Below, piece after piece: positions 1 through 64,000 of a stretch of 64,000 nucleotides of DNA; within the stretch, counting starts at the first letter, position 1; each line of letters starts with the position of its first letter. The translations under genes and the position numbers were made by a program. The notes beneath the pieces were generated by a model. That model worked only from the letters and a program-made list of their open reading frames with translations. It did no database searches and was not told the DNA's origin. The stretch lies in assembly GCA_030324005.1 (NCBI GenBank), contig JARDVH010000115.1:40690026-40754025 (forward strand), read 5' to 3'. The stretch is from Negaprion brevirostris (lineage: Eukaryota).

Positions 1-699
1 TGGCTTTGTTTTTGTTCATTTTTATATTCCTACTTAATGGCCATTACAAGTTGAGTTAAATTTTACATTTATTAAACAGTAACCAAACGGTTATGTTTAT
101 TTCAAAGTGCTGACGTAGCCTTCGAAGTTGATGGCCCACATCCATATTAATGATTAAACCATACTGGAAAAACAAGCAGCGCCTCCCTCACCTCGGGGCA
201 CGCACCATCGGGCAACTACTTTCATAAAAAGTAAATAGAAGCATTTATTGGAAGAGAGCTTATCGTTTTAGATTGCCGTTTTGCACATAGCAAATTGCAC
301 AACAGGAAACTGACAGGGGGTTAGATGTGGGTGGATGTTGCATAATTATTTGGCTCGATAGTGACCGAGTTTTTAAACCTCTATGCAATGATTTAATACT
401 TTTCTGACGTTACGATGACTCGTTTTTACCATTTTCACAGAAAGCCTGGCCAAAAACGCTCGGTTTGTTTAGTTTTGAAATGCTGAGATTGTAGTGCTAA
501 GATACTCACCCCCTTGCATTAGTTTGGGGGCGATCTTAAAAAAAAGTCTTGTAATGAATAGATTGCTACTAAACTGGGAGTGGAGAAAGCAGAGGAGCTG
601 GATGAGTGCAGTATTAGTGCAATGTGCTGGCTCTGTGAGTGACTTGGTGCAAAAGGGATGGGGAGTTGCGACATTCTGAGGGGACTGAAATAGAACAGG

Positions 700-790
700 C
701 CCTGACGTCATGGGGCGGAACTGGAGCTGCAGCTGGGGGCGGGGGAGTAGGACCTTGACTGATCTCACATACCCGCTATTTAAATATGCA
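700..790 (+). promoter_or_regulatory. Distal promoter candidate: CRE + two GC boxes + TATA-like element
   Basis: TGACGTCA 703-710, GGGGCGG 712-718, GGGGCGGGG ~736-744, TATTTAAA 777-784; additional TGACGT half-sites at 111 and 405; CCAAT at 917. Confidence 0.55.
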
Positions 791-1235
791 TTTTATACAG
801 TAACTGCTCTATTGTTATGTGTTCAGTCTTTATGACGGTCAAAGGAGATCCTTTTATCGCAAGTTTTGGTACTCGTCATTAATACTTAGCCCGATGTTGC
901 AGTCGGGGAAGCCAGGCCAATTGCTCAGCAAAATGAATGTTATTTCTGTGCTGTCTTGGCCCTGCCTGGGATTGCGTCGTTTAGCTGAAGTCTAGGATTT
1001 AAAATGTAATTGCTGAGCTGGTGTCTCATTTTGCCTTTAAGTACAACTTTTACCTTTTGGTTGTAGAAGGGATTAGGAGAATGTTTCAGCAACGCAGCTA
1101 TTTTAATAAGCATTCCCCTAATGTGCTTTGGTAACTGAAGTATTAAAATGGAAAATTTCTAGCATTCATTTTGAAAATATTGTTGTTAGAGGACCTCTTC
1201 CATTACTACCGCGTGTTCAATGACTTGGTGTATCG

Positions 1236-1410
1236 GACTGAGTCACGTTCAGAGTAATTGGGCTGAGAGCCCCATGCTGGCTGGGGAAGGCTACGGCTGC
1301 GCACTGGCAGCGGGGCTGGGGAAGTCGCGCCTGCGCACTGGCGGCGGAGCTGGGGAAGCTGCACTTGCGCACTGGCGGTCTGGCGGTCTGCAGCGCGGCG
1401 CTGACGTCAC
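1236..1410 (+). promoter_or_regulatory. Proximal promoter elements: AP-1, NRF1-like site, CRE
   Basis: TGAGTCA 1239-1245, GCGCCTGCGCA 1327-1337, TGACGTCA 1402-1409. Confidence 0.55.
1280..1380 (+). repeat. ~34-bp tandem repeat, about 3 copies
   Basis: GCTGGGGAAG at 1280, 1315, 1349; TGCGCACTGGC at 1298, 1332, 1366. Confidence 0.85.
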
Positions 1411-3180
1411 GCGGCGCTCGGAGAAGCTGGGTGGCGCGAGCGGGAGGTGAGGAGAAAGCGGAGAGCGGAGCAGGAGAAAGGCGAGCGAGGGAGCCCGGGC
1501 CCAGCCACTCAACCCCCAACGCCTTCGCACCATGTCCGCTGCACAGGTCTCTTCGTCCCGGAGACAGTCGTGTTATCTCTGCGATCTGCCCCGCATGCCG
1601 TGGGCCATGATCTGGGATTTTACCGAGCCTGTGTGCCGGGGTTGCGTCAACTACGAAGGGGCCGATCGCATCGAGTTTGTTATCGAGACGGCGCGGCAAC
1701 TGAAGCGGGCTCATGGCTTCCAGGAGGGCCGCTCTCCGGGGCCGCCCCCTGTCAAAGTGCAGTCCTTGGGAGGCAGCAAGGAGGCGGCTCAGCAGCTCAA
1801 CCACGTCGACGGCTCGTCCAAGGCGCCGCAGCCGCCTCTCGATCGCTACTCCCTAAGCGAGAGACCTCGCTTCGAGTATCCGAGCCTCGCCCACGCTGGC
1901 AGGCTTCCCAATGGCCTGAACGGACCCAATGGATTCCCCAAACCCGAGGACATACCGCCGGAACTGAACCGGCAGAGTCCCAACTCATCGCGGAGAAATC
2001 ACGGCATCGTGCCCCCGGGCCCGGTCACTGTGCCGCCCAACCTGCTGCCTCAGACCACCTTAAACGGTCCGTCCGCAGGAACCTTGGCCCCGCACGGGCT
2101 GCTCGGCCGGCCGTCACCTTCCAGCAGCCTGGCTGGCACATCAGTGACGGTCAGCAGCCAGGTGCTGAGCGATGTAAACAAGCGGCCGGGCTCGGTATCC
2201 AGCAGCGACCAGGAGCGGGAGCTGAAGGAGAAGCAGCGGAACGCCGAGACCCTGGCCGAGCTGGGTGAGAGCCTGAGGAACCGCTCGGAGGACTGGGCCA
2301 ACAAGCCCAAAATCGTGCGGGAGACGCTTCTCACCCTGTCCAACTGCAACCCCTTCGATGTGCGCTTCAAGAAGGATCATTCTCTGCTGGGCCGGGTCTT
2401 CGCTTTCGACGCCGTTTCCAAGCCCGGCATGGACTTCGAGCTGAAGATCTTCATCGAGTACCCGAGCGGCTCGGCCAATGTCTTCTCCAGCGCCTCCGGG
2501 GTGGCCAAGCAGATGTACCAGGACTGTATGAAGGATTTCAGCAGAGGCCTATCGTCAGGCTTCAAGTACTTAGAGTACGAGAAGAAACATGGTTCGGGGG
2601 ACTGGCGCCTCCTGGGTGACCTCCTGCCCGAGTCGGTGCGTTTCTTCAAGGAGGTGGTGGGGGCCGACATGCTGCCGCAGCCCCACATCGACGCCAATTG
2701 CCCCATCTTACCCACTGCCCTGTGCAACATGCCGCGCCCCCCGCCCAACAGCTCCAGAACTGGGATGCGCAAGCGGAAAGCGTCCCCCGAGCCCGACTCG
2801 GACGCGGGCAGCGTGAAGCTGGAAGAGCGGCAGCAGCAATGGCTCTCTAACCAGAACGAAGCCTTAAAGCTCACTATGGCGGTATCCGGCAGCTTCGGGG
2901 CAGGCGGCGTGCCGCACGGTGGTTCCGCTCTACCACCCAACCGGACCACCCCCCCCGAGTGCAGCACCCAGAACGGACAGTCCCCCATGGCTGCCCTCAT
3001 GTCCGTGGCTGACACCCTCGGGAATGCCCACTCGCCAAAGGACAGCAGCAATTCCGTACATTCGACCACGAGTACCAGCACCAGGAGGAACAGCAACAGT
3101 CCGGTGTCCCCGGCCTCAGGGGGCGGCCAGCGCCGCATGGTGTCCAGGAACGGGGATGCTGCTCTGTCCGTGGCCCCTCC
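1280..3180. promoter_or_regulatory. CpG island over the IRF2BPL proximal promoter/5'UTR and most of the CDS
   Basis: Visibly GC- and CpG-rich compared with the AT-rich, CpG-poor remainder of the window. Confidence 0.85.
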
Positions 3181-3514
3181 TAACAACCATCCCAATCCCA
3201 GCATAGACCCCGTTCATCCCCCAAACATTCCAGACTCACCGATGGCCAACAACGGGCCCCTGTGCTGCACCATTTGTCATGAACGTTTGGAGGATACTCA
3301 CTTTGTGCAATGTCCATCAGTGCCCAATCATAAATTCTGTTTCCCATGCTCTCGGGAGAGCATCACGGCTCAGGGGGCGAATGGAGAAGTTTATTGCCCC
3401 AGTGGAGAAAAATGCCCTTTAGTAGGTTCAAATGTCCCTTGGGCATTCATGCAAGGAGAGATTGCTACAATCTTAGCAGGGGACGTAAAGGTCAAAAAAG
3501 AAAGAGACCCATAA
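1532..3514 (+). CDS. IRF2BPL: Interferon regulatory factor 2-binding protein-like (IRF2BPL/EAP1); single-exon, 660 aa transcriptional co-regulator / RING E3 ligase
   Basis: Uninterrupted ORF with start context CACCATG and TAA at 3512-3514. N-terminal IRF-2BP C4 zinc finger [48 protein letters not shown]; central [22 protein letters not shown]...[25 protein letters not shown] block; [12 protein letters not shown]; C-terminal [32 protein letters not shown]...CPSGEKC ending KVKKERDP. N-terminus and lack of intron fit IRF2BPL better than IRF2BP2; a slowly evolving IRF2BP1 paralog is not formally excluded. Confidence 0.92.
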
Positions 3515-4400
3515 TTTTTAACTTCAGTAATTGAAGTAAAATGTGAATAAGAACTAAAAAGTTAGTCTTATGTATAGACATTTTTCATTTCCGTCGTATG
3601 TTTCTATATTTTGAAACAAGGTATGTACTCTTCTTCATTTGAAGGATGAACCTGGTTTTGTTTAAAGAATATCAGATATTATTGCTTAATACTGTTTTCA
3701 CTTATTGAGGCAGTGTGTTGGCTAGGTACAAAATCATAGCACTTAGCAATTAACGCTGCTGGTGTGTTTTTGTAAATGTATGCACTTCGCTGAATTGCCA
3801 AGGCCAGTGTTGACGTCTGCAGAAATGCAAACAAATTGTTACAAAGAATGGTCACAGTTAGTTATGTTACACGCCCTGGAGATAGTCTCCTACAAAGTGA
3901 CTTTTTTAAAAAGGTGAGGGGTTCTTTTTATTAGTTTCCAAGGGCAAAATATTTCATTTTATGATTCAGTGATCTGAATTTTTTATAACTTTTTTTGCTT
4001 TATGGATGCACGAATGCTTTAAATAGTAGAGCAAAATGCTGTACTGTATATGACAAAACTGCTCTGTTTGTTCTTTATACATTTCTGTAGTAACAGAAGA
4101 CTGTAATGTGCCTTGGAGCTGAATAAATTGTAATAAATTCGATGAATAAGCTCCCTGACTAGTCAATTTCTTTACAGACTGTAGGAAATGTGAACAAATT
4201 GGATGTGAATACCTATGAGAAAATGGCTGCTTTATTGCTTTAAAAGTTACATTACTGCAATCGCTGTCAGAGATGTCATTCTTATAATTAAATAAATACT
4301 ATCATTGCAATATTTACTTATTTTGGCAAAGAGCCCACATATTTATAAATCACCTGAATGCTTCAAAAATAAACTGCTGATTCAGGTTTTCCCATTCACT
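3515..4400 (+). other. IRF2BPL 3'UTR with candidate polyadenylation signals
   Basis: AT-rich, repeat-free sequence after the stop; AATAAA at 4122, 4132, 4291 and 4368; true end not determinable. Confidence 0.55.
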
Positions 4401-7400
4401 TTTTTGCTGGACTAAAACCTGATGAGTTCCACTGAAACAAAATATGAAATAATTGTTCTGAGATTAAAGGCACTTTAAAGTGATCGAATGTTACTGTGTG
4501 AAATCAATGGCAGTTAGTTAACTGTAGTGGTCCAGGTAATTGTAACAAGTTTGAACACAGATGTTAAGACCAAAAAGCAGCTGTTTCATTTTGAGCTGAT
4601 GAAAGCAAGGGCTGTGGTGCTGGTACAGGGAACTGTATCCTGCATTCTATGCAGCAAATCCCTGGTCTGAGTAAAAATGCTTTTTAAATTCATCTCTTCA
4701 AATCATATGCACTTTAAAACCAGCCATTTGATATTTATTGATGTTGAAAAACATTCTTCTGATACAAAAAAAAACTATTTCCTTGCCTTTTACACATTTG
4801 CAATGCTTACACTTATGATAGTTTGTCCTAATGTATGATCTCAAGTTATGTTTCCACAGTGTACATGTTAAGCAACTCGATGCAGTAGGTACTGCAACTG
4901 GACTGCTGCAGTTAATGTTTTCTTAGTGTGCACAATTGAATTTAAATATCTGAAAAATGCACTTTCCTTGAACATTGAAATATTTGAAGTACTCATTTCT
5001 CACTTTCAAAATATTAATGGTGAAAATAAAAGAGGAATTTGGTGTGAACATGGACTTAATTAACTGGCGATATAGTGTGATATTTTTGTTTTTATTTGTT
5101 TTGAATCGACCTTTTTGCATCTTTATCCCAAAGCTAAATTGTGTCACTTTTAATTGAAGGAATAGGGAAATGTGATGAGAGCTGAAGTGTGTTTTTGGAT
5201 TTTTTAAATCAAGCCCATTATAAGCATTTTATCAATATACAACAGAACCCCCTGTACTGTAACCTAACAACTTCACTTTGGTATTAATAGTTCATTATTT
5301 TTGCTATTGCTGCTGAGCTGCATATAAGTGATTAACAGCACAAATTAAGTTCCTTAATGGAAAAGCTGATACTATTTTCAAAGGATAACTGAACCCTATT
5401 TGATCTTTAATCGAGGGCTGGTGCATTCAAGATTTATAGCTCCAGACTTGTTTGTTTATACAGCTGTTCTTCATCTGAAGATTTTGATTCTGAAGGTACA
5501 AAGTTGGGAGTTATTTTTATATTTTAATTACAAGGATTTTAATAGTTATTGTTGATGTTTAATAAGGCATTTTGCTTATAGCCTTGATCTTGGCCCCTGC
5601 CAAATTATATGTTCTCACAATACGGTCTAGGTAATAAATTCCAGTAATGTTTTAAACAATAATATAATCTAAATAATTTACTAACGACCATATTTTAAGT
5701 TTGTTTTTCAAATTTTCTAATAATTGAATGTAGAGCAGATCTGGAGAGGGTGTTGTCCATCCGTTTTCTCCACCACCAATACTAAAGCTGAAATCTTCAC
5801 TTTGATATGCACAAGATCATTTGAAATGGATCTTTCCGCTTTCTAATGCCTTGGTGCTGCATCATCCTGAACATATTCTTGACTAAATACTCTTTGATAG
5901 ATTTAAAAATATTATTGGGTTTAAGATTTGGATAGTCTTGAAACTTGGGAAATGATGCATTATCTTTGTATTATTATTTGAACCAGGAGTATTTTTGTTC
6001 TAATGTATGTTTATCCATTTGCCATTCTATTTTGCATTTATCATTGTAAACAAAAATTCTGTAGTATTCCAGATGATTCCAGTCCTGCAAGGAGCAAAGC
6101 ATACATTATACAGCATTAACTGAGTACTGAAGCATCAGAAAAATACTGTAGAGGGGTAATAAAATTATTACTTGGTTTAGAATTTTTATATCTAAAAAGA
6201 TGGGGTTGAGGAGCAAAATACCTAAAGGAACAATGAGTGTAAAAAGTTGGCCCAATATTTGTGCAATTAAATTTATATATTTAACAAAATATACTCTGTT
6301 GGTATGTGCAAGTCTATTACATAAGAGTTAAGTTTTTAAAATGACCTATGCTGCAAAAGCAGTTAATAAAAGCAATCATCAGGACAGACAATTATAAAGT
6401 TTGTGGGGATGGGGGGAATGATCAATTAGGAAGAGTTGATGGTACAGAGAGAAGCTAGATAGTATCAAGATATGTATAAGTATCAAGCTGTAGAAATTAA
6501 AAAAGAAGTGTTTCACGCCAATTCAATTGACAAGCAGACTTTTAGATCTGAAGTGTTTTGGGTCTGGCCTGATGGTTTTAAGAGTAGAAAATAATAAGAT
6601 TTTTAGATGTTGCCAAGGATGGACCAGCTGAATCCACTCCATGATGTGCTGTTTGCCATAGAGGAATTAATATTGTTCCAATCAATGGAAAGTGAACTTC
6701 AAAACTCAAAGTTCACTGATACAGAATATTATCTAATACTTGGGTTCATTGCAGCATTTTATGGATCGGTTGATCAGAGTGAGAATTAATTTCTCTTCAA
6801 ACTAACAAGCAATCTGTATATAGTATATCTGAAGTACTGAGGCTACTGCATCTGTCTGCAGTTGCTTACTAGAACACCTGATATTCCAAGCTTGGCAGTT
6901 AGTGTATCATTTACTCTTTGACATGTAGGAAATCCACATATCAAGCTTTGGTACAATTTCAGCCTCCCTCTTAAGAAATTTTATTGTGCTTTTCAGACTG
7001 TAACATGCTGTTGCTTAAGAATTATGAGAGGGTTATTCTGTGTGCTCTCTTGTATGTATCCTCAAATTAATTTAGTGATAATCAACTTCACTGATATTTG
7101 ATGGCATTACTTAACTCCAACTGTATTGACATCTAATATAAGTAATTTTGCTAACTAGAGTAAATGTGCTGGGGTTACACTAGAAGTTGCTTAGTTGTAA
7201 ATGCTGATGAAAATTAATTTTATTCAAATATTACTGTTCAGCAAACAACATAAAACACTTCCAAGAGAAAGGTAAATGGATGTTTCATTTGAGATTTAAA
7301 CAAATGTTCCTATTGTAAGTCCTTTGCTTTTGACTTTGTTGAAGTTAACCCCGTATGATGTGTTTGACGTTGAAAAAATTGCCTTGTCTGAGTAATAGTT

Positions 7401-12475: not shown

Positions 12476-12550
12476 TTAAAATGTATTTGTTCATAAGATA
12501 CGGGCATCACTGGCTAGGGCAGAATTTATTGCCCATCTGTAATTACCTTC
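12476..12550 (-). mobile_element. 3' tail fragment of the MetaSINE / partner LINE family
   Basis: Reverse complement contains gatgggcaataaattctgccctagccagtgatgccc, matching the tails at ~22130 and ~29870. Confidence 0.65.
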
Positions 12551-16388: not shown

Positions 16389-17810
16389 AGCATGTGAATT
16401 AGGAGCAAGAGTAGACCATCCAGCCCCTTGAGCCAGCCCCACTTTTCAATCAGATCATGACTGATCTGATTGTAACTTCAATCCCACATTCCTGTCTACC
16501 CCTGATAACCTTTCACCCCACCTTGTTAATCGAGAATCTATCTAGCTCAGTGTTAAAAATATTCAAAGACTGCTTTCGCTGCCTTTTGATGAGGCAAGTT
16601 CCAGAGACTGATGGCCCTCTGAGGTAGAAATGTTTCTCCTCATCTTTGTCTTAAGTGAACAGCCCCTTATTTTAAAACAGTGATCCCTAGTTCTAGATTC
16701 TCTGACGAGTAAAAATCACCTTTCCACATCCACCCTATAAATGCACCTCAGGCTCTTAAAGGTTTTGACCAAATTGCCTCTGACTCTTCTAAACTCTCGT
16801 GGATACTTCCCTGCTGTTAGGCTTGTAAACCTTCTCTGAACAGCTTATACACTTGCATTTTTCCTTAACTGAAGAAACCAATACTGTACACAATACTCCA
16901 GATGTGGTTTTACCAATGCCCTATATACCTGGAGCATAACTGCCCTACTTTTGTAATCGATACCCTCGCAATAAATGAGAACATTCTATTGGCTTTCCTA
17001 AATAGTTGCTGTATATATACACTAGTCTTTAGAGCTTCATGTGCTTATTGTCTAAATGGTAGGTGCAGAGGAATCCTCTGCACCCACCTTTTAGATAATA
17101 AGCTGCTTTTCTTATTCCTGCCAAAATGGACAATTTCACATTTGCCCACATTATACTCCATTTGCCAGAGTTTCACCCACTCACTTTACCTATGTCCTTT
17201 TGTAACTTCCTTACATCTTCACAGTTTACTTTCCTATTTGTCTTTCTGTCATCAGCAAACATCCATATCTTCAGTCCTGGCATCTAGGTCAGAAGGAGAT
17301 CCATTTATGCCAATCTTCTGTCTACTGTTGGCTAGCCAATCTTCAGTCTAGGAAAATATGTTTCCTCCTATGCCATGAACTTTTATTTTGCACAATAAGC
17401 TCTGATGTGGCACCTTATCAAATGCCTTCTGGAAATCAAAGTATAATAAATTTGTTGGTTCCTCTTTGGCACAAGTGGCTCCTTCAAAGAATTCCAATGA
17501 ATTGGTTAAAGATGATTTCTCTTCCACAAAACCATATTGACTACCTGACTAACTTGAATTTTTCCAAGTGCCATGCTATAACATCTTTAATAATGGCTTC
17601 TAACATTTTTCCTATGACAAATGTTAGACCAACTGGCCTGTAGTTTTCTTTTTTTCTGTCTCTCTTTGAGTTATATTTGCTGTCTTCCAATCTCATGAAA
17701 CCTTGCCTGAATTTTGGAAAATTAAAACCAATGCATCAACTATTTTGTTAGCTGCTTCTTTCAAAAATTTAAGCTGAAGTCCATGTGGACCAGGGTATTT
17801 GTCAGCCTGC
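16389..17810 (-). mobile_element. Decayed CR1-clade LINE (RT and 3' end)
   Basis: Minus strand near 17400-17445 reads YFDFQKAFDKVPHQSL; CR1 tail (aggagcaagagtagaccatccagccccttgagcc on +) at ~16400. Confidence 0.85.
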
Positions 17811-21989: not shown

Positions 21990-22177
21990 CCAGCAATGCA
22001 TTCACTGTTGCTGGGTGAAATTCCTGGAACTCCCTTCCTTGCTGTATTGTGGGTATATTTACAACACATGGACTGCAGTGTTTCAAGAAGGCAGTTCACC
22101 GCCACTTTCTTGAGGTCAAAAAGAGATGGGCAATAAATGCTGGTCTAGCCAGTGGTCTCGTGAGTGAACTAAAAAAA
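21990..22177 (+). mobile_element. 3' end of a LINE of the same family as the 25190-28773 element
   Basis: ctggaactcccttcc...ggactgcagtgtttcaagaaggcag...gatgggcaataaatgctggtctagccag...aaaaaaa; homologous to the reverse complement of 25190-25350. Confidence 0.7.
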
Positions 22178-25100: not shown

Positions 25101-25479
25101 GATTAAAATGTGTGCAATCTAAAGCCTTATCTAAGGCAGATAAGCTGTTCAGGCCTAACGCCATATTCCCTGGCCTCCTTTGTTTGCAGTTTTTCTTTAT
25201 TTGTTCATTGGATACGCATGTCACTGACCAGGGCAGCCTTTTTTGCCCACCAATAATGCCACTCAAGGTGGTGTTCATCTTCATGGACCACAACAGTTCG
25301 TATCCTGAGGAGTGTTGTTAGGTAGGGAGTATTAGGATTTTGACCTAGTGACGTTCAAGGGACATCCTATAAATTTCCAAGTAAGAACGTGTGACTTGAA
25401 CAGGAGCTTACAGTTGATCATGGTCTCTTGCATCTGCTGTCCTTGTCTTTTCAGGCAGTAGATGTGTCAACAGTGACCT

Positions 25480-26511
25480 AATTGGCCAATGTCAGGACGA
25501 TGCTTCCATGCAGAGGTAGACTTGCACTTTTGGGAGCCCTGTGCTCTGCCTCCATGCCAGAACCCCTGTGACATCATGCTCTGCTTCCCAGTAACGTGAC
25601 TTCTTTACCCTCCTCAGCCCTGGCCATGGGGTCGTGTGGCCCCCTGCTACAGCTGGTCCCCTTGATGATCTCAGCTTGTCAGTGTGCTGGTGGCTCACCG
25701 GCTACTGCTGGCTATCTAGCTTTGGCCTCTGCTCTCACCCATGCCAGTTTCATTACAGTCCAGCCACCCCACTCTCAGATATGGCTTCTGCTTGAATTGC
25801 CCCACTGCTTCCTGAAAACCACGCTGGTGCCTATTGGCCTCACATCTTCCAGTCCCAACAGCTCACCTCTTGCTTGCATGGCTGAGCCTCTAGTCTCGAT
25901 GACTGTGTGGACTTCTGACTGGCTGCAGTATCTGCCTAGCCCAGGCTGCTGCTGGCTATCTGGCCTAGCCTCTGCACTTTCTTTGTTTCCTCTTCCTTCC
26001 CCCAGTGAGTTGCCCTGCTGCTGCCCTTGATGGCCATTGGCCAGCATCACCGCCTCAACCCTCACACTTGGCCTTGCAGGTCTGCACTCTGATGTAAGGT
26101 CAGCAACCTCACTCTAGCCTCAGGCTGCTTGCCTGACTGTCGTCATAAGGCTGCTGCTTTACTAATGGAAAAAAGTTCTGAAACTTCAGACCAGACAATC
26201 AACAAATCCATCTGAACTGCTCTCAAGTTACCACCATCTCTCAACTAGGACAGTGTTTTCCTGCGCTAAGTGAACTCCTCCAATCAGATCCATGTTGTTC
26301 TCCATTGCTTGCTGATGAGTCTATCAGCAAATTAAGAGCTACAAGGCTCTGATCCTGCCACTGCCACCTCTTGGTTTGGGGCCACCCCATTGGTCAGGGC
26401 CCTGTGTTGACGTGCTGTGTGTTTCATTGAAAGTCCGCCTCTGCTAAAGTTGGATCTCCTCCTACTTTAGGCCCCTGGTTGTGGGACTCAGTCCACAAAA
26501 TAAGATCCAGC
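25480..26511. mobile_element. GC-rich insertion within the LINE, probable non-autonomous TIR DNA transposon fragment
   Basis: Abrupt GC-rich block interrupting LINE homology, ending in aaaataagatccagc, similar to the termini seen at 17900, 47826 and 49421. Confidence 0.4.
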
Positions 26512-27832
26512 TTTGCATTTCCGAGATGAAGAGTAGGTCATTGATGCAACTGAAGATAGGTGTGCCTAGGGTGCTTCCTGAGGAACTCTGCTGAGATGTT
26601 GTGGGTTTGAGATGATTGGTCTCCAACAACCACCACAATCATCTTCCTTTGTGCTAAGTATGATTCCAGCTAGTGAAGAGTTTTCCTCTGATTCCCATTG
26701 ACTTAAATTTTACCACAAATTATTGATGCTATACTGGGTCAAAGACTATCTTAACACATTTCGACTTCAGCTTTTTTGTCCATGTTTGGACCAAGGCTAT
26801 AATGAGGCCTGGGGCTAAATGGTCTTGGTGGAATGCAAACTGAGCATCAAGGTGTAGGTTATTGGTAAGTGCTGCTTGTTAGCACCACCCATGACACTTT
26901 CCATTATTTTGCTAATTGAGTTGACTGATCAGATTGTAAATGGTTTGATTTGATTTGCCCCTTTTCTGGACAGAATATTTCCTAGTTAATTACCCATCTT
27001 GTTGCTAGATACCAATATTGTCACTGTCCTGGAACAATTTGGCTAACCAAGTGGCTAGTTGTGGAGTGCTGGTCTTGAGCGCTGCAGCCAGAATGCTGCT
27101 GGTGCCTGTAGCCTTTGGTGCATTCAGTGCTGTCGGGCGTTTCTTGATGTTGAGTGAATCAAATTGGCTGGAGACTGACATCTGTGATGTTGAGGACTTT
27201 GCTCAAATGGCATCCGTTCATTTCATCTGCTCAGCACTTCTGTCTGAATACAACAAAATGTTTCAGCCTTTTTTTAACTGAATTGCTGTGCCCACCAACA
27301 GTAAAGATAGGGATGTTTGTAGAGCCTTCTTTTCTTAGTTGTTTAATTGTCCACCACACAACACATCTGATCCATTAATTATGGGATAGCTTAGGTTTGA
27401 CTAAGATATGCCCCTGTCGTTTAGCATGCATGTTGTACTGTATTGTAACTTCAACAGGTTGTCAATTTTTAGGTATGCCTGAAGCTGTTGTGCTACCTTA
27501 TAATTCATAACGGCAGTGGTAGAGTGTGGGATATTCAAGGCCATGAGGTTCAGATTATGGTGGAGTATAATTCTGCTGAATACTTGCAGCCTTTTATCTG
27601 TGACCAAGTCCATTATGGAATAAGTAGATTAGTAAAAATGTTTTTTTGTTATTTTTCTAATATCTACCACCTAGTTTGGAAACTGTCGTTCAGGACTTGG
27701 TAAGTAGTTATGATGCCAAGCCAGTTGGAGAGGTCAATGTCCATTATTTAGAGTACATTCTATGCTAATGCCACTCGCTGCTTCTTCCAAGTGATGTTCA
27801 ATGTCGAGGAGCACTGACTCATCAGCTATTGC

Positions 27833-28121
27833 TGATGTGGATTGGATTGGAAGGGGCCTAGAGCTGGGGGTACGGAGGGAGAGGAGTTTGTAAAATGTGT
27901 GTTGGAAGGGTCCCTAGAGCAGTACGTAACTANNNNNNNNNNNNNNNNNNNNNNNNNNNNNNNNNNNNNNNNNNNNNNNNNNNNNNNNNNNNNNNNNNNN
28001 NNNNNNNNNNNNNNNNNNNNNNNNNNNNNNNNTACACACAGGGCAGGGTAGGTGTAGGAGGATGCAGCGGCGCGGGCTCGTTGGGCCGAAGGGCCTGTTT
28101 CCTGTGCTGCGTTGTTCTTTG
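27833..28121 (+). mobile_element. Younger CR1 LINE, mostly collapsed into an N gap, inserted into the SINE-headed LINE
   Basis: Left flank translates DWKGPRAGGTEGEEFVKCVLEGSLEQYVT (CR1 endonuclease); right flank has the CR1 tail gggccgaagggcctgtttcctgtgctg; candidate TSD TATTGC at 27827 and 28122. Confidence 0.75.
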
Positions 28122-29601
28122 TATTGCAGGGCAGTAGACAGTAACAAGCAGAAAATTTCTTGCCCATGTTTAATCAGATGTCTGGAGTCCTTGTTAAGGA
28201 CTCCCAATGCCACTCCCTTCAACTATATACCACTGTACCACATTTATGGCAGATCAATCCTGCTATTGGGCCAAATTGTGTCAGGAACCATGAAGGTGGG
28301 GTCTGGGACTTCGATGAAAGGTAGGTTAGGCTGTTACTTGAATAGTCTGTGGGACAGCTCAGGTACAACTTATTGAGGAGTATTTTGCAGGGTTGTCTTC
28401 GATGCATGTATCTTTGGCATGCCTGGTGCCTAAGTTGATGAAGGCTTTATTATTGTATTTTATGTAGTTTAATATAACTTGTGTGGCTTTTTAAGTTGAT
28501 GCAAAGAGTAGTTAGAGTCTGAATCACATATAGGGCAGTCCAGTTATGGAAGGCAGATTTCAATTACTTAAGAACGTGATTGAATAAGATGGATTTTTAC
28601 AGCAATCTGATAGTTTCATGGTCACATTATTGATATTAACTTTTCATTCTAGATTATTTTATTTAATTAACTGAATTTAAATTCCCCAGTTTCCTCAATA
28701 GAATCTGAATTAACCCTGAATCCAGACCTCTGCATTAGTAGTCAAGTAACATAACCACTATGCTACCATATCCTTACTTTATATATTGTACTTTTACGAT
28801 AGTAATTCTTTAAGTATCAAAACAGAACATGCACTGTGTATGAAATTATATTAGTAAATACATATTACCAGTTGTAAGGAGAACTAAATACTTTCACAAG
28901 GCTGTAAGGGAAACATCTGCATGCAACTGCAGTCAAATAAATTCTCCTAAATTACAGTTCACTCATTGGTTTAGGATCTGGAGATATCCTTTATTATCCA
29001 CTTTCTGACAGAATTTCATGCATCTTCTTTTAAGAGATACAGTAATGTCCCAAGTAATTTAAACATATATTTTCAAAGCTGACCTAAGTGCAAGTACTTG
29101 GATCCAGATGGATAGATGAGCAGGAATGTACAATACAAGCCTGTTTTCAAGCCCTCTGTTTGGCCCCAAGGTGGACAAAAACAGATTCTTGGACATTAAT
29201 TTGGGTCATTGAATACTGCCAGGACAGCATTCTTGTTTATTTTGTGAGTCAACTTTACAGAGGAATGACAACTCAGACTAGGACATGGCCAAGTAGTGGC
29301 GTTTTTTTTTCAGAATGGAAATATTTGTGCAATTTGGAACAGAGGATGTAACCATATCAAGTTTCTCAAGGGTATTTCATCCACTTTGTCTGCACTGTCT
29401 TTTCAAATGGAGAGAACCTATTCGTTTTTTTTCTATCAAAAGTCTTTCAATAATGTTACAGTCTTGGAAAATAGGTTTTCATTTTGTGGTTCGGGAATTT
29501 TGTTGGTTAATTGGAAATGCAAAAGAAGGCTAAAATCTGCGGAACGTAAGTTGGAATAAATGCTTGCCTATTACATTGCCTTTGTAGACTATTGCCTACT
29601 A

Positions 29602-29919
29602 GGGAAGGTGATGGCTTAGTGGTATTGTCGCTGGATTAGTAATCCAGAGACCCAGATTCAAATCCCACCATTGCAGGTAGTGAAATTTGAATTCAATAAA
29701 AATTTGGAATTAAAAATCTAACCATTCAATTGTCATAAAATCCCATCTGGTTCGCTAATTAATGAAAGCAATCGACCATCCATCCTTACCTGGTCTGGCC
29801 CGCATGTGATTCCAGATCCACAGCAATGCGGTTGACTCTAAACTTGCCTCCTCATGGACAAATTGGGGATGGGCAATAAATTATAGCCCAGCCACATCCC
29901 ATGAACGAACAAAAAAAAA
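29602..29919 (+). mobile_element. Full-length tRNA-derived SINE with Meta domain (MetaSINE-type)
   Basis: A-box TGGCTTAGTGG 29612-29622, B-box GATTCAAATCC 29655-29665, central ccttacctggtctggcccgcatgtgattccagatccacagcaatgcggttgactct, tail gggatgggcaataaa...gccacatcccatgaacgaac plus A-run. Confidence 0.8.
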
Positions 29920-30034: not shown

Positions 30035-30372
30035 AGCATTTCAGAGAAGGTTCATTCCACTGATTCCCAGGATGAAAAGGTTATTCCATGAGGAAAGATT
30101 CAACAGGTTGGGCCTGCCAGAGATAGAGATTTTTTTCTCTAAAAGCTGTTAGCCATTATCCTCTTCCTTGGGTTAGTGGAGGCAGGGCCATCAGATATTT
30201 TTTAAGGCTGAGTTAGATAAACTCTTAATTGACAGTAGATTTAAAAGGGTATTGGGGGTAGACAGGAAAGAAGAGTTGAGTCCATAATCAGATCTGCCAT
30301 GATCTTATCAAATGGTGGAGCAGTCTTGAGAGGTTGAATGGTCGCTCCTACTCCTACTTATCTATGTTCATG
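30035..30372 (+). mobile_element. CR1 LINE 3' fragment
   Basis: tttaaggctgagttagata...gatctgccatgatcttatcaaatggtggagcagtcttgagaggttgaatgg...tcctact. Confidence 0.75.
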
Positions 30373-39594: not shown

Positions 39595-39862
39595 TCAAAA
39601 ACTCTCTGGGTCATTGCTGACTCCTCCAAATCATGTGAGAAAATGGACCTTTCATTAAACACGAAGAAAACTAAGGTCCTCTACCACATAGTTATTACTG
39701 CAGAATGCCTCCCCCCATCAAGATCAACTGTGAGCTCCTGAAGAATGTGGACCATTTTCCATTTCTTGGGAACCTCCTCTTAATAATAGCAGACATTGAC
39801 AACCAAATCCACCATTGCTTCCAGTCCTGCATATGCCAACTGAGGAAATTAGTCTTTGAGGT
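39595..39862 (+). mobile_element. RTE-clade LINE RT fragment
   Basis: NTKKTKVLY...IKINCELLKNVDHFPFLGNLL...ADIDNQIHHCFQ. Confidence 0.7.
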
Positions 39863-40105
39863 GGTACAGTTGATACAATAATTTTGTATTTGTAGCTAAT
39901 AATCGAGAAAGGTAACTGTTTCTGAATACAATTTTATTTTAAAAGAATCTAGTTCACTTGACTTTTGCTTTGGCCTAAAACTGGAGTTTTCCATTCTTGG
40001 GGAAAAATGGAAAATGGCCCACATTCTTCAGGAGCTCACTGTTGATCTTGATGGAGGGAGGCATTCTGCAGTGATAACTATGTGGTGGAGGACCTTTGTT
40101 TTCTT
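39664..40105. repeat. ~101-bp inverted repeat (39664-39764 vs 40005-40105)
   Basis: Manual alignment gives 6 mismatches and no indels; spacer ~240 bp. Confidence 0.92.
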
Positions 40106-43205: not shown

Positions 43206-43401
43206 TTTAAACAATCTTGAATTCTGTTGAACATAAAAGATTATGGGGTTGGTGGTCTGTGGACTGTCTGTGCTGTTGTGTGCTCTGTCTGGGGCTGGAG
43301 CTCTCTGTTCGCCTGGCGGGGTGGTGGGGGGGCTTGTGAGTTTGCTATCAAGTGGATCGGTTGGACTTGACCTGGTGTTGTCAGATTTCTTACTGTGTTT
43401 C

Positions 43402-43740
43402 ACACAAGATAGAGGATGGTGGTGGAGGGAAAATTTTCAGACTGGAGGCCAGTTACCAGTGGTGTACCATTGCGATCAGTGCTGGGTCTTCTGCTATTTG
43501 TGATTGTTATCAATGACTTGGAAGAGGGGGCNNNNNNNNNNNNNNNNNNNNNNNNNNNNNNNNNNNNNNNNNNNNNNNNNNNNNNNNNNNNNNNNNNNNN
43601 NNNNNNNNNNNNNNNNNNNNNNNNNNNNNNNGAGCACACCAGAATGATAGGGAGTGGGATAGCTTGATCTTGGGTTTGGACATAGCTCGGCATAACATTG
43701 AGGGCCGAAGGGCCTGTACTGTGCTGTTATGTCCTATGTA
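43402..43740 (+). mobile_element. Younger 5'-truncated CR1 LINE spanning an N gap
   Basis: [38 protein letters not shown] (RT motif); tail gagggccgaagggcctgtactgtgctg. Confidence 0.85.
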
Positions 43741-44943: not shown

Positions 44944-45105
44944 AAACATACAAAATAGGAGCAGGAATAGGCCATTTGGCTCCTTGAGCCTGTTCCACCA
45001 TTTGAAAAGACCATTGGCTATCTGATTGTGAGCTCTACTTTCCTGTCCACCCCCCTCCTCCATATCCCTAGATTCTTGACTGGCAACGGAGTCAATCTAA
45101 CCTAT
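44944..45105 (-). mobile_element. CR1 3' tail fragment
   Basis: aggagcaggaataggccatttggctccttgagcctgttccaccatt. Confidence 0.7.
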
Positions 45106-48121: not shown

Positions 48122-50084
48122 TAGCTACGTCTTTCAACAGGGATTACTTATCAGTGACTGTAAAAAAAAAAAAGGCAAGGTGTTATGAATGTGTTTACAT
48201 CATACCTTTTGGATACTGGAGTTGTGTACTGAAATCTTTTTCCATGGTCATTACTGCCTTTGTTCTTTGTTCTTGAGCTTCAGCCCTGTCTGTTTATTCA
48301 AGTACCTCACTATGTCAGCCCCCGATGACATTGTTCAAGGAAGAACATTTCTTTCATGTCTCCATTGCTGAATATGAAACAAACTCAACATTTTGCCACA
48401 TCTCAGGTTCCCTTTTCACAATGCTATAAAATCTTGACAACCCAACACTGTTGCTGTCAAATCCCAAAATTGTATCTCCTGTGCCACCAAAGCTGAATAT
48501 CCCTGTCCCCAGCACTGCTGAATACCAGACACCTATNNNNNNNNNNNNNNNNNNNNNNNNNNNNNNNNNNNNNNNNNNNNNNNNNNNNNNNNNNNNNNNN
48601 NNNNNNNNNNNNNNNNNNNNNNNNNNNNNNNNNNNNACCTATTCATAGCCATGCCTTTCTTGCATACCCTCCTGTTTTTTATTCTCAGTTTCACAATGAA
48701 ATGCGTAGGTAAAGGATGATGGATATAAAAAATAAAAATCCTTGAATCCTAAATAATACTAATAGAATTTGATTTGTTACTGTAGGTAAATTGTGCATTA
48801 TACACAACATTATTCCCGTTTCAAGACCGTGCACTACATGATTCATTGGGTTAAATTTCAAAATGGCCATGGAGTTGAGACTGGTGGTAGAAGGGCCCAA
48901 GGTTTTTCGTCACCACTCAGCATGCTGGTTTTTGCCATCATCCTGCCTCTGGGTCATTTTCATTCTGGGAAGACTGGAGGCAGGGGGCAGTGATAGTAAG
49001 TGGACCCCAACGTGGCCCAAGGCCTAAGGAGACCAGTGTTCCATCCACCTAGAAAATCCCCAAATCCATCAAAGTTGTTGGACCGTAGCTGCTGCCGCTG
49101 GCTGGCAACTTTGACCTTTTTCTAATGCTTAAAATATTTTCATTCACTGTTGAGGCACCTTCTCCCTCCCTCCCTCTCTCTGTCTCTCTTTCCACCCAGA
49201 TCAGCGGATGGGAGGAGTGCTGACTTGTGAGGCCCAAAGGATCTCCTGTTGGCCCTCCAGCCTCGGGGAGCCCTGCCTCCAGCCTTATTTGGACAGCGAG
49301 AGTACACTCTGGCCACTAATTGACCTTTATTTAAAAATCATTTTGAATGTTGGGCACTGATGTGATGGAAGATCAGGATACTGGACCTTCACCTGATCGC
49401 AGGGTCTTGACTTCGGAGCGAAAATTCAGCCCAATATGAGTAACACTGAGTGATCTTGTTGCATTTAAAAATGGAACTATGAAATAAGGATTGTTTGAGG
49501 CTGCATTCAATCTCTTTTCTGCTCAGGTTTTATAAACCTTTCAAATTCTGCTCTTGTGGTTTATGACATCACCATAACTGCTCAGTTGAATTACTCCCAA
49601 CCATCTGTTATAACAGTGATTGTCCATTCCAGTCTTGTTTAAACTAATTTCTTGTAGTGTTGCTCGTCGGTAGTTTGAGTTCACTGTTTTATGTATGTTA
49701 TCTGTACAGAGCTAACGTTGCCATTTTATTTCTCAACAAATTGCAGTTATCCCTTGAGAGCTTCTTTTATGTCTGAGCAAGCTTAGAGAATTTAACTTAA
49801 TTCTNNNNNNNNNNNNNNNNNNNNNNNNNNNNNNNNNNNNNNNNNNNNNNNNNNNNNNNNNNNNNNNNNNNNNNNNNNNNNNNNNNNNNNNNNNNNNNNN
49901 NNNNAGGATGTGGTCATTACTGATAGGGCTGGAAATCTTAATTGTCCTGGGAAGATGACGGCAGGTCCTGTTGTTCAAGTGCTGTCTCTGGTGGTTTGAT
50001 ACAACTGTGCACCTTGCTAAGTCATGCTTCAGAGGCCTTACTGTGGTACCGTTGTCACACAGAATGGCAATTTTTATTTTCTCT

Positions 50085-50290
50085 CCCTAAAGGATATCAA
50101 TTAACTAGCTGGGTTTTTAAGATCATTCTCATAGCCACTTTTGATACCAGTTTTGTATTTCCAATTTTTTTTTAAATTGAAGTCAAATTGTTAAACAACA
50201 GTGGTAGGATTTGAACTCCTGTTCAGTGGATTATTGAACCAGGCCTGTAAATAACCAGGTCAGTAACGTAATCATTACACCGTCATGTCC
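50085..50290 (-). mobile_element. Degenerate MetaSINE-family head fragment
   Basis: Minus strand acggtgtaatgattacgttactgacc...ggagttcaaatcctacc...aatttgacttc, homologous to the heads at 28773 and 29602. Confidence 0.5.
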
Positions 50291-51500: not shown

Positions 51501-52340
51501 TCAATATTTAGGCTAGTGAGAGCAGTTCAGGAATAGCGGGGAGGGGGGAACCTGGTAGGTTAACTGGGCTGTGAATGGGGGAGTAGGGGTGGAACCTTCC
51601 ACAATGGCCCGTTTCTACATTCACCTGGCCCGGAGACCAGGACTGCTTGTAATCCCAGTTCTGGCCAGTATTGATACTGGTACTGCTGGGACTACAGATC
51701 CGCTGCCCAATCAGATTGGCCAAGGAAGCAGTGGCAGTCCCATCTTAAGCCAATTAATGCTTCTGGGAACATTAAATGGCTGCAGGGTTGCCATGCACCA
51801 ATGATTCTTTGGGTGATGGAGTAAGAAACCACAGCACCCAAAAAAGGCCTACTTGTATAGATCTTCCAAAATCAGTTCATGATGTAAGTTTTACTATAAC
51901 ATCATTGATTGTTATGTTGTCATGGATGGATGGATGGAATGAGGTGTAACTGGGTTTGCGATAATGTACTAAGTTCATAGCTGCTGCTGAACAACCATCC
52001 TGGCCTTGAGAAACTAATTTTGTATTTCTGGTTTATCAATTTTTCCAGTACAATGAAAATTCCATACGTTTTTAACTTAATACTTTTGAAGATTATTCAT
52101 ATTTCATTCTTTATATAATAATTACAATTGAGCTTAATAAAATTATTGTATTTTGTGGCTGTAACTTGAAGTTTAGGGTAAATGAAGGGGGGATTCATGT
52201 GACTGTTCTGAACTCTGCCCGATAGTTGGCCTAGGTGGTTTGATTGTTAGAGATCAAAGGAAGGCTGATGTTGTTTGCTGAGAAGAAAATGCAAGGCATT
52301 CAGAGGGGATTGGGGAGAAGGGTCCAACGATCAGTGGACG

Positions 52341-52548
52341 AACATAAGAAATAAGAGCAGGAGTAGGCCATCTAGCCCTTCGAGCCTGCCCCGCTATTCA
52401 ATAAGATCATGGCTAATCTGAAGTGGATTTCCCACTTTCCCACTTTCTCCCCATAACCCTTAATTCCCTTTTCTGTCAAAAACCTATCTACCCGTGACTT
52501 AAATATATTTAGCGAGGTAGCCTCCACCACTTCAACAGGCAGAGAATT
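52341..52548 (-). mobile_element. CR1 LINE 3' end running into a gap
   Basis: NSLPVEVVEATSLNIFKSRVDRFLTEKGIKGYG; tail cataagaaataagagcaggagtaggccat on +. Confidence 0.85.
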
Positions 52549-62409: not shown

Positions 62410-62545
62410 TAACATAGGAACAGGAGTAGACCTTTCGGTCCTGTTTTGCCATTCAGTTAGATCATGGCTGATCTTAATCTAAATCATCGTGTCTGCCTTT
62501 CCCTATAATCTCTTTAATACCTTTAGTTGACATAATTTTAATCTT
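62410..62545 (-). mobile_element. CR1 3' tail fragment
   Basis: aacataggaacaggagtagacc...gccattcagttagatcatggctgatct. Confidence 0.65.
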
Positions 62546-63299: not shown

Positions 63300-63469
63300 T
63301 GAGTAAATTTAAGGAGGAGTTGGATAGATTCTTAATTGGTAATGGGTTGAAGGATTATGGGGAGAAGGCAGGAAAATGGGGATGAGGAGCATATCAGCCA
63401 TGTTTGAATGTTGGAGCAGACTCAATGGCCCAAATGGCCTAATTCTTCTATATCTTGTGAACTTATGAA
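63300..63469 (+). mobile_element. CR1 3' end
   Basis: aaatttaaggaggagttggatagattc...ggagcagactcaatggcccaaatggcctaattc. Confidence 0.8.
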
Positions 63470-63489
63470 GCTGAATATTATCAAACCTA

Positions 63490-64000
63490 GTGAACATGGT
63501 TTTATGAAAGATAACTCATGTTTGACACACATCCTCAAAGAATTTGAGCAAATAACAAGGGGGAGTAGATAGAGGAGAGCCTCTAGATGTGGTGTATTTA
63601 GATTTCCAAAAGGCATTGACAAGGTTACGCATAAGAGGCTGGTGCATAAAGTAAAAACACATGGAATTGGAGGAAGTGTGTTTGCATGGATTAAAAACTG
63701 GCTGTCACCTAGAAAACAGAGTGTTAGAATAAATGGATCCTTTTCAGAGTGCAAACATATAACTACTAGAATACTGCAGGGATCAGTTCATGACCCGCAA
63801 TAATTCCCTATTTACATTAATAACTTTGGAGGAAGGAATGGAATATACAGTTTCCACATTTACTGATGATACGAGGATAGGTGGAAGGGCATGTTGTGAT
63901 GAGGATATTGTGATTCTGCAATGGGATATAGATAGATTGGGTGACTGGCAAAAACCTGATAATGTGGGGGAGTGTGATGTCATGCACTTTGATAGGAGGA
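63490..64000 (+). mobile_element. CR1 LINE reverse transcriptase, decayed, running off the window
   Basis: HGFMKDNSCLTH...VDRGEPLDVVYLDFQKA...WIKNWLSPRKQSVRING...LQGSV...STFTDDTRIGG. Confidence 0.9.

Follow-up and report, generated by a model that had tools for sequence, protein, structure and literature searches.

A tRNA-headed, ORF1-free Zenon LINE of sharks and rays as a candidate Pol III retrotransposon and probable source of SINEs

Introduction

Short interspersed elements, or SINEs, are defined as non-coding transcripts of RNA polymerase III (Pol III); long interspersed elements (LINEs) are defined as coding transcripts of RNA polymerase II (Pol II). A 64,000-nucleotide stretch of the Negaprion brevirostris genome (hereafter, the window; assembly GCA_030324005.1, contig JARDVH010000115.1, positions 40,690,026 to 40,754,025) holds on its minus strand a decayed LINE with a tRNA-like head, close to a free SINE with a head of the same kind. 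Does the head belong to the LINE, which polymerase would read it, and how did the SINE arise? An earlier note, made from the sequence alone, took the locus for a LINE with just one open reading frame (ORF) and a SINE-type 5' end. This overall reading is supported: the locus is a worn copy of elasmobranch Zenon, a LINE family that is abundant in sharks and rays and has already been published (Stuart et al. 2026, PMC13343379).

Judged from sequence comparisons, the odds are slightly better than even (roughly 0.55) that elasmobranch Zenon is an autonomous Pol III retrotransposon, with an uncapped 3.3-kb RNA whose translation would do without an in-frame AUG, and that it would have been kept in sharks and rays while spawning SINEs by single deletions, erasing the LINE/SINE divide. 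The rule that separates the two classes would not hold for a LINE that brings its own tRNA promoter and lacks Pol III terminators, and a long Pol III RNA would prove translatable in a vertebrate cell. New SINEs would have a one-step route of origin, and a compact, ORF1-free, self-promoting retrotransposon could serve as a model for cap-independent translation.

The tRNA-like head is a family trait of the LINE

The window copy reads from right to left on the minus strand. Its tRNA-Thr-like head (28775-28690) has an A-box, TAGCATAGTGG, at 28765-28755 and a degenerate B-box at ~28715-28700, as the earlier note had claimed, and is followed by an AT-rich linker. A conserved 5' body (28689-28473, consensus ~95-320) is common to the LINE and the SINE; when the LINE (28775-28500) was aligned with the free SINE the score was 94, and the best of 100 shuffles reached 38. 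An A-rich leader, a basic N-terminal stretch and the decayed start of an apurinic (APE) endonuclease occupy 28472-28128 in continuous alignment, with the endonuclease starting at ~28390, ~120 bp past 28510 and in the same orientation (tblastn match at 28360-28136). The rest of the endonuclease, the linker and the reverse transcriptase (RT) remnants lie at 27827-26535, interrupted by stops and frameshifts (consensus 753-2363, E 2e-138; RT remnants at 27170-26530), and the 3' end of the ORF, the 3' untranslated region (UTR) and an A-rich tail common with the SINE lie at 25450-25190 (consensus 3014-3286, E 3e-25). The tail itself (25260-25190) scored 42 against that of the SINE, with a best shuffle of 32. 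The head, body and endonuclease of this copy align without a break to the consensus of an older subfamily (blastn high-scoring pair 28668-28180, E 2e-28). Its identity to the two subfamily consensuses is 61-70%, and it is older than both.

Searches of the same genome with the head, the endonuclease start and the RT (best 40 of 45 to 4,772 candidates each) returned many endonuclease matches with a head 350-600 bp upstream. For an unbiased count we used a head-free endonuclease query; 40 places out of 8,222 candidates were scored, 38 of which were fetched; two short-contig matches were left out, and loci L139 and L140 were excluded since they had been picked for having heads. The head-to-endonuclease junction, which the earlier note had wanted counted to see whether it is unique to this locus, recurs in 29 of these 38 copies, in which at least part of the head and body is present and colinear. 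Sixteen begin within 15 nt of one common 5' end, with flanks that look unrelated; the other starts fall in the tRNA part (4) or in the body (9), or belong to truncated or gapped copies (9). No second shared 5' end was found among the 38, and by eye no copy has another shared 5' UTR or an ORF1. Among the pieces listed, the body-endonuclease junction is also bridged in contigs of at least two of four other sequencing runs with different organism codes.

A consensus that a script built out of 49 loci has a length of 3,294 bp, with the tRNA-like head at 1-95, the body to ~320 and an A-rich end. It has a single stop-to-stop frame (295-3231, 979 codons) encoding the APE endonuclease and the RT, and the Pfam domains Exo_endo_phos_2 and RVT_1 were found on two sister genomic copies. 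There is no ORF1, as had been anticipated: ~425 nt precede the endonuclease, and the longest stop-free stretches upstream span 34-51 codons. The frame has no ATG ahead of the endonuclease, within which its first Met falls, and an upstream AUG opens an out-of-frame 36-codon frame that overlaps the start of the ORF. Short A-rich ends, mostly worn, were seen in 10 inspected copies, and no target-site duplications were recognisable by eye in inspected copies. Younger copies are ~85-92% identical to the younger consensus; the consensus of the older subfamily is 93% identical to the younger one and has the same head, and its own copies average 79%.

In the consensus the A and B boxes stand at tRNA-like spacing, and both are intact in both consensuses and across sharks and rays. 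Among 24 distinct host tRNAs, the older consensus head best matched tRNA-Thr(AGT) (z 6.1). Relaxed ARAGORN settings named the heads as tRNA-Asn and tRNA-Thr; these calls were given no weight, as the same settings, run on 35 upstream regions serving as controls, made 114 calls there. MetaSINEs likewise have a tRNA-Thr-derived head (Nishihara et al. 2016, PMC4824008), and the earlier note had labelled the body a Meta domain. This label is not supported by the comparisons we made. Nothing resembling the 66-bp Meta domain follows the head when viewed against the consensus in Fig. S4 of PMC7245038 and the BivaMeta alignments, and scans for three short Meta motifs gave results at or below chance, the comparison being by eye and by motif rather than by full-length scoring. 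By eye, the likeness to the bodies of bivalve MetaSINEs is limited to a few short stretches.

Runs of T are purged from the sense strand

Oligo-T is a terminator of Pol III (PMC4494074), so T-run loss is the trace expected of selection for read-through by Pol III. The sense strand of the consensus contains no TTTT and five TTT, compared with 21 AAAA and 73 AAA; the older consensus likewise has no TTTT and five TTT. A single endonuclease-RT frame free of TTTT was among the checks proposed in the earlier note, and this is what the consensus has. The window LINE stretch, decayed and with its insertions counted, has seven TTTT. Within the ORF, TTT occurs three times. Permuting codons among identical residues predicts 14.8 (none of 2000 permutations was as low) and synonymous resampling 23.3 (observed/expected 0.13-0.2); TTTT is absent against 4.6 expected under resampling (P 0.013). 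Phenylalanine is encoded by 16 TTC and two TTT codons. By ratio TTT is the most depleted 3-mer (0.13), with TTC, CTT, TCT, AAA, CCC and GGG at expectation. Broken T-runs are likewise absent from the ORF, and neither polypyrimidine tracts nor splice-donor-like motifs are depleted.

As controls, we built consensuses of two other LINEs of the N. brevirostris genome in the identical way from 30 loci each; by their motifs we take them to be CR1 and a Rex/Babar-like element. Both are at expectation, with 32 TTT (22/kb) and eight TTTT in 1,452 nt of CR1 ORF, and 17 TTT (13/kb) and five TTTT in 1,305 nt of the Rex/Babar-like ORF. Distant relatives were drawn from metagenomes and contaminated genome bins (117 loci, of which 15 had no usable ORF of at least 900 nt and 102 were kept). 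Their TTT density has a minimum of 5.6 and a median of 30.6 per kb, versus 1.0 in the shark element, and their lowest observed/expected ratio is ~0.6 versus 0.2. None of the 102 lacks TTTT, and none has both an A-box and a B-box, although at least 350 nt upstream of the long ORF are present in only 35 of these loci. One distant relative (L282, 35% identity) combines a low T content with one TTTT in a 953-codon ORF, on a contig without the 5' region.

SINE copies look like internal deletions of the LINE

In the fetched loci, which were mostly chosen by endonuclease matches and whose counts are not genome proportions, 163 distinct body matches were found: 105 continue into the LINE, 33 are fused to the tail and the remaining 25 show neither arrangement. 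We called head and tail subfamilies of the 33 SINE-class copies at positions where the two LINE consensuses differ. In twelve copies either the head or the tail call was missing, and L112 was dropped as a misclassified LINE fragment, leaving 20, of which seven were young at both ends, 11 old at both ends and two discordant (Fisher P 0.0008), with tail calls that in most copies depend on one or two sites. The junctions mostly differ as well, running from ~290-295 to 3222-3226 in younger SINEs and from 315-321 to 3192-3221 in older ones, and they also vary within the groups. A longer bipartite derivative (L014, 1650-2540) leads from the body through consensus 2697-3100 to the tail.

The simplest reading of these alignments is that the SINEs arose from the LINE by internal deletion, more than once. 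The earlier note had suggested such an origin, and this part seems to hold for SINE-type copies in general; the step from the window LINE to the adjacent SINE does not. The free SINE (29602-29919, plus strand) is consensus 2-292 fused to 3212-3288, with an older-type head and tail. The linker found in the LINE copy next to it is missing from the SINE, which therefore does not derive from that copy and is an independent insertion. The earlier note left out that the two lie on opposite strands, with their heads facing each other ~830 bp apart, and that the SINE has a head of a different subfamily.

Comparable elements are known. Bov-tA and SINE2-1_ACar, as described by Kojima (2018, PMC5786205), also join a tRNA head to the 5' and 3' parts of a LINE; in the bipartite SINEs treated there, which come from RTE and Vingi only, the head was joined to an already deleted LINE, whereas here the autonomous LINE carries it. 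Zenon elements of Lepidoptera (PMC6740152) have a single ORF and, like the shark element, repeatedly yield derivatives made of the 5' and 3' parts. Their derivative Persaeus has neither tRNA homology nor a Pol III promoter, unlike the shark derivative, which is a full SINE.

Published Zenon elements and more distant relatives

The published rows CarCar_, RhiTyp_, ScyCan_, HypSab_ and SquAca_Zenon (PMC13343379) agree with our element in length (3.2-3.3 kb), the lack of ORF1, the A tail and a first 400 nt that is near-identical by eye. Over those 400 nt our younger consensus resembles the RhiTyp row and the older one the CarCar row, and the linker of the window copy resembles the SquAca rows. 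By eye, all seven elasmobranch rows start with the tRNA-like head and six retain the upstream AUG; two hagfish rows and one coelacanth row have no such head and contain TTTT within the first 400 nt. The terms "tRNA", "promoter" and "polymerase III" occur zero times in the main text of that paper, and descriptions of the head, the T-run purge, the AUG-less frame or SINE derivatives were not found in the parts of it available to us. In the accessible part of a whale shark preprint, CR1-Zenon is named once. Our literature search, judged mostly by titles and abstract beginnings and set outside Repbase, Dfam and subscription journals, gave no description of a tRNA-headed, Pol III-type LINE. The family is thus known, and the tRNA head with its Pol III character seems unreported in the literature searched. 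Some Ingi-group elements reportedly have small-RNA-like 5' ends.

In a 43-row RT tree without labelled reference Zenon proteins, the element groups with single-ORF elements from amphioxus, moth and metagenomes (support 99/93), and the shark CR1 and Rex controls fall apart from it. One relative came from a word-index protein search and none from the viral contigs searched. The relatives outside elasmobranchs lack the tRNA head, and an early ATG is present in most of them; the elasmobranch lineage is therefore the likely place of the head's gain. It was likely gained once, given the same headless relatives, with SINEs then re-derived from the LINE by deletion. The earlier note had set internal deletion against the capture of a SINE head as alternatives; both parts fit, and they are not mutually exclusive.

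A candidate Pol III life cycle and its alternatives

Master copies of elasmobranch Zenon were probably transcribed end to end by Pol III from the internal A and B boxes, to judge from the head and the T-run purge. TFIIIC and Pol III would start at +1, read through 3.3 kb, since no oligo-T terminator remains, and stop in flanking T-runs. Translation of the uncapped RNA would be non-canonical: it would begin at a non-AUG codon, or else at the upstream AUG that is out of frame, with a -1 shift or reinitiation afterwards. The protein would bind the 3' tail and copy the RNA by target-primed reverse transcription, which is established for LINEs. An internal deletion that keeps promoter and tail would make a ready-made SINE, and this would have occurred more than once.

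Several observations weigh against this life cycle. An uncapped 3.3-kb Pol III RNA without an in-frame AUG would need a non-canonical route to translation, and an IRES-like (internal ribosome entry site) pseudoknot ahead of the ORF is not supported, as RNAalifold on 15 copies gave no pairs there. Four presumed-RNA contig sets cover the element, with contigs that carry no information on start, strand, level or polymerase. Rfam searches of the window region and four well-preserved copies gave no tRNA, IRES or ribozyme family, so that the head was not called a tRNA, and default ARAGORN found no tRNA genes in 15 loci. By itself, the lack of TTTT falls short of significance under codon permutation (P 0.07-0.08), the signal being carried by TTT, and TTA and TAT stand at about half of expectation; part of the T-run signal may be a general avoidance of U-richness. 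The consensuses rest on copies 79-89% identical to them, and the older one retains frame errors and was seeded from the younger, which makes its independence partial. For the SINEs, the two discordant copies and the few sites behind the tail calls count in the same direction. On the translation route, the published Zenon rows available to us have by eye a 4-bp invariant pairing without covariation ahead of the ORF and nothing further, and by eye the stretch from the upstream AUG to the endonuclease contains no canonical -1 slippery heptamer.

The strongest alternative, which we still consider improbable, is that the captured SINE head acts as or inside a Pol II promoter, or that host Pol II reads through the element; the RNA would then be capped, the upstream AUG used and the T-runs lost for another reason, such as avoidance of U-rich decay or silencing. 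All LINEs tested so far are regarded as Pol II transcripts, with the same wording in PMC5786205, the AUG kept in six of the seven published elasmobranch rows suits scanning, and the depletion extends to TTA and TAT. Against these points stand the intact boxes in both consensuses and in both sharks and rays, the copies that begin at the tRNA +1, the lack of a comparable purge in CR1, Rex and the 102 relatives, and the splice-type signals that are not depleted.

More doubtful still is an old, independent SINE lineage that shares modules with the LINE and owes its head likeness to recombination or template switching rather than to repeated deletion. The tRNA head needs a source, and a SINE that already existed is the simplest one; exchange of modules has been well documented (PMC4824008, PMC7245038), two of 20 SINE copies are discordant, and in the contigs of the four runs the depth of head bins far exceeds that of endonuclease bins, a depth that does not equal copy number. 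This account fits poorly with younger and older SINEs that mostly differ in junction, each with the head and tail of the contemporary LINE, with the retention of consensus 2697-3100 in the longer derivative L014, and with lepidopteran Zenon, which repeatedly yields internally deleted elements (PMC6740152). A chance SINE insertion beside a 5'-truncated LINE, which the age and interruptions of the window copy might have suggested, is refuted by a junction that is present in dozens of copies (105 of 163 body matches continue into the LINE, in loci mostly picked by endonuclease), in contigs of at least two of the four other runs and in the published consensuses as far as available.

Other features of the window

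Three further pieces that the earlier note assigned to the family were aligned. Those it placed at 21990 and 50085 are members: a 5'-truncated 3' fragment of the LINE at 22001-22152 on the plus strand (consensus 3108-3258, E 7e-35) and a head/body fragment at 49996-50222 on the minus strand (SINE and consensus alignments). The one at 12476 is a tail fragment by its consensus match (12484-12547, minus strand, E 4e-9), although its likeness to the SINE is weak (42, best shuffle 44). The window LINE itself is interrupted twice. A later insertion into the endonuclease (27830-28122, with an assembly gap at 27933-28032) begins with a common short repeat (14 matches in other loci), and ~1 kb of unrelated DNA (25500-26530), which matched none of the loci fetched from the N. 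brevirostris genome, replaces consensus 2363-3014. The latter is GC-richer and possibly another element.

Fragments of another common repeat family lie at 16397-16559, 30199-30369, 44945-45054, 52340-52421 and 62431-62477, and CR1-like RT remnants near 17285-17548, 43377-43520 and 63441-63827. Outside the window, a separate multi-locus repeat of ~450 bp is inserted in one copy (L026, ~550-1100; also L349-L377) and dominated the matches of searches seeded with that copy. Eukaryote-type LINE ORFs were also met in prokaryote genome bins (L281-L317), several on contigs of 0.1-1.6 Mb (L284, L286-L294, L300), which suggests that these bins contain host DNA contamination. An inverted repeat at 39664-40105, with 101-nt arms that are 94% complementary and 240 nt apart, resembles a miniature inverted-repeat transposable element (MITE). 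At 1532-3514 on the plus strand, a single-exon ORF of 660 aa combines a zinc finger at its N terminus with a RING-like motif at its C terminus and looks like an IRF2BP-family gene (IRF2BPL-like).

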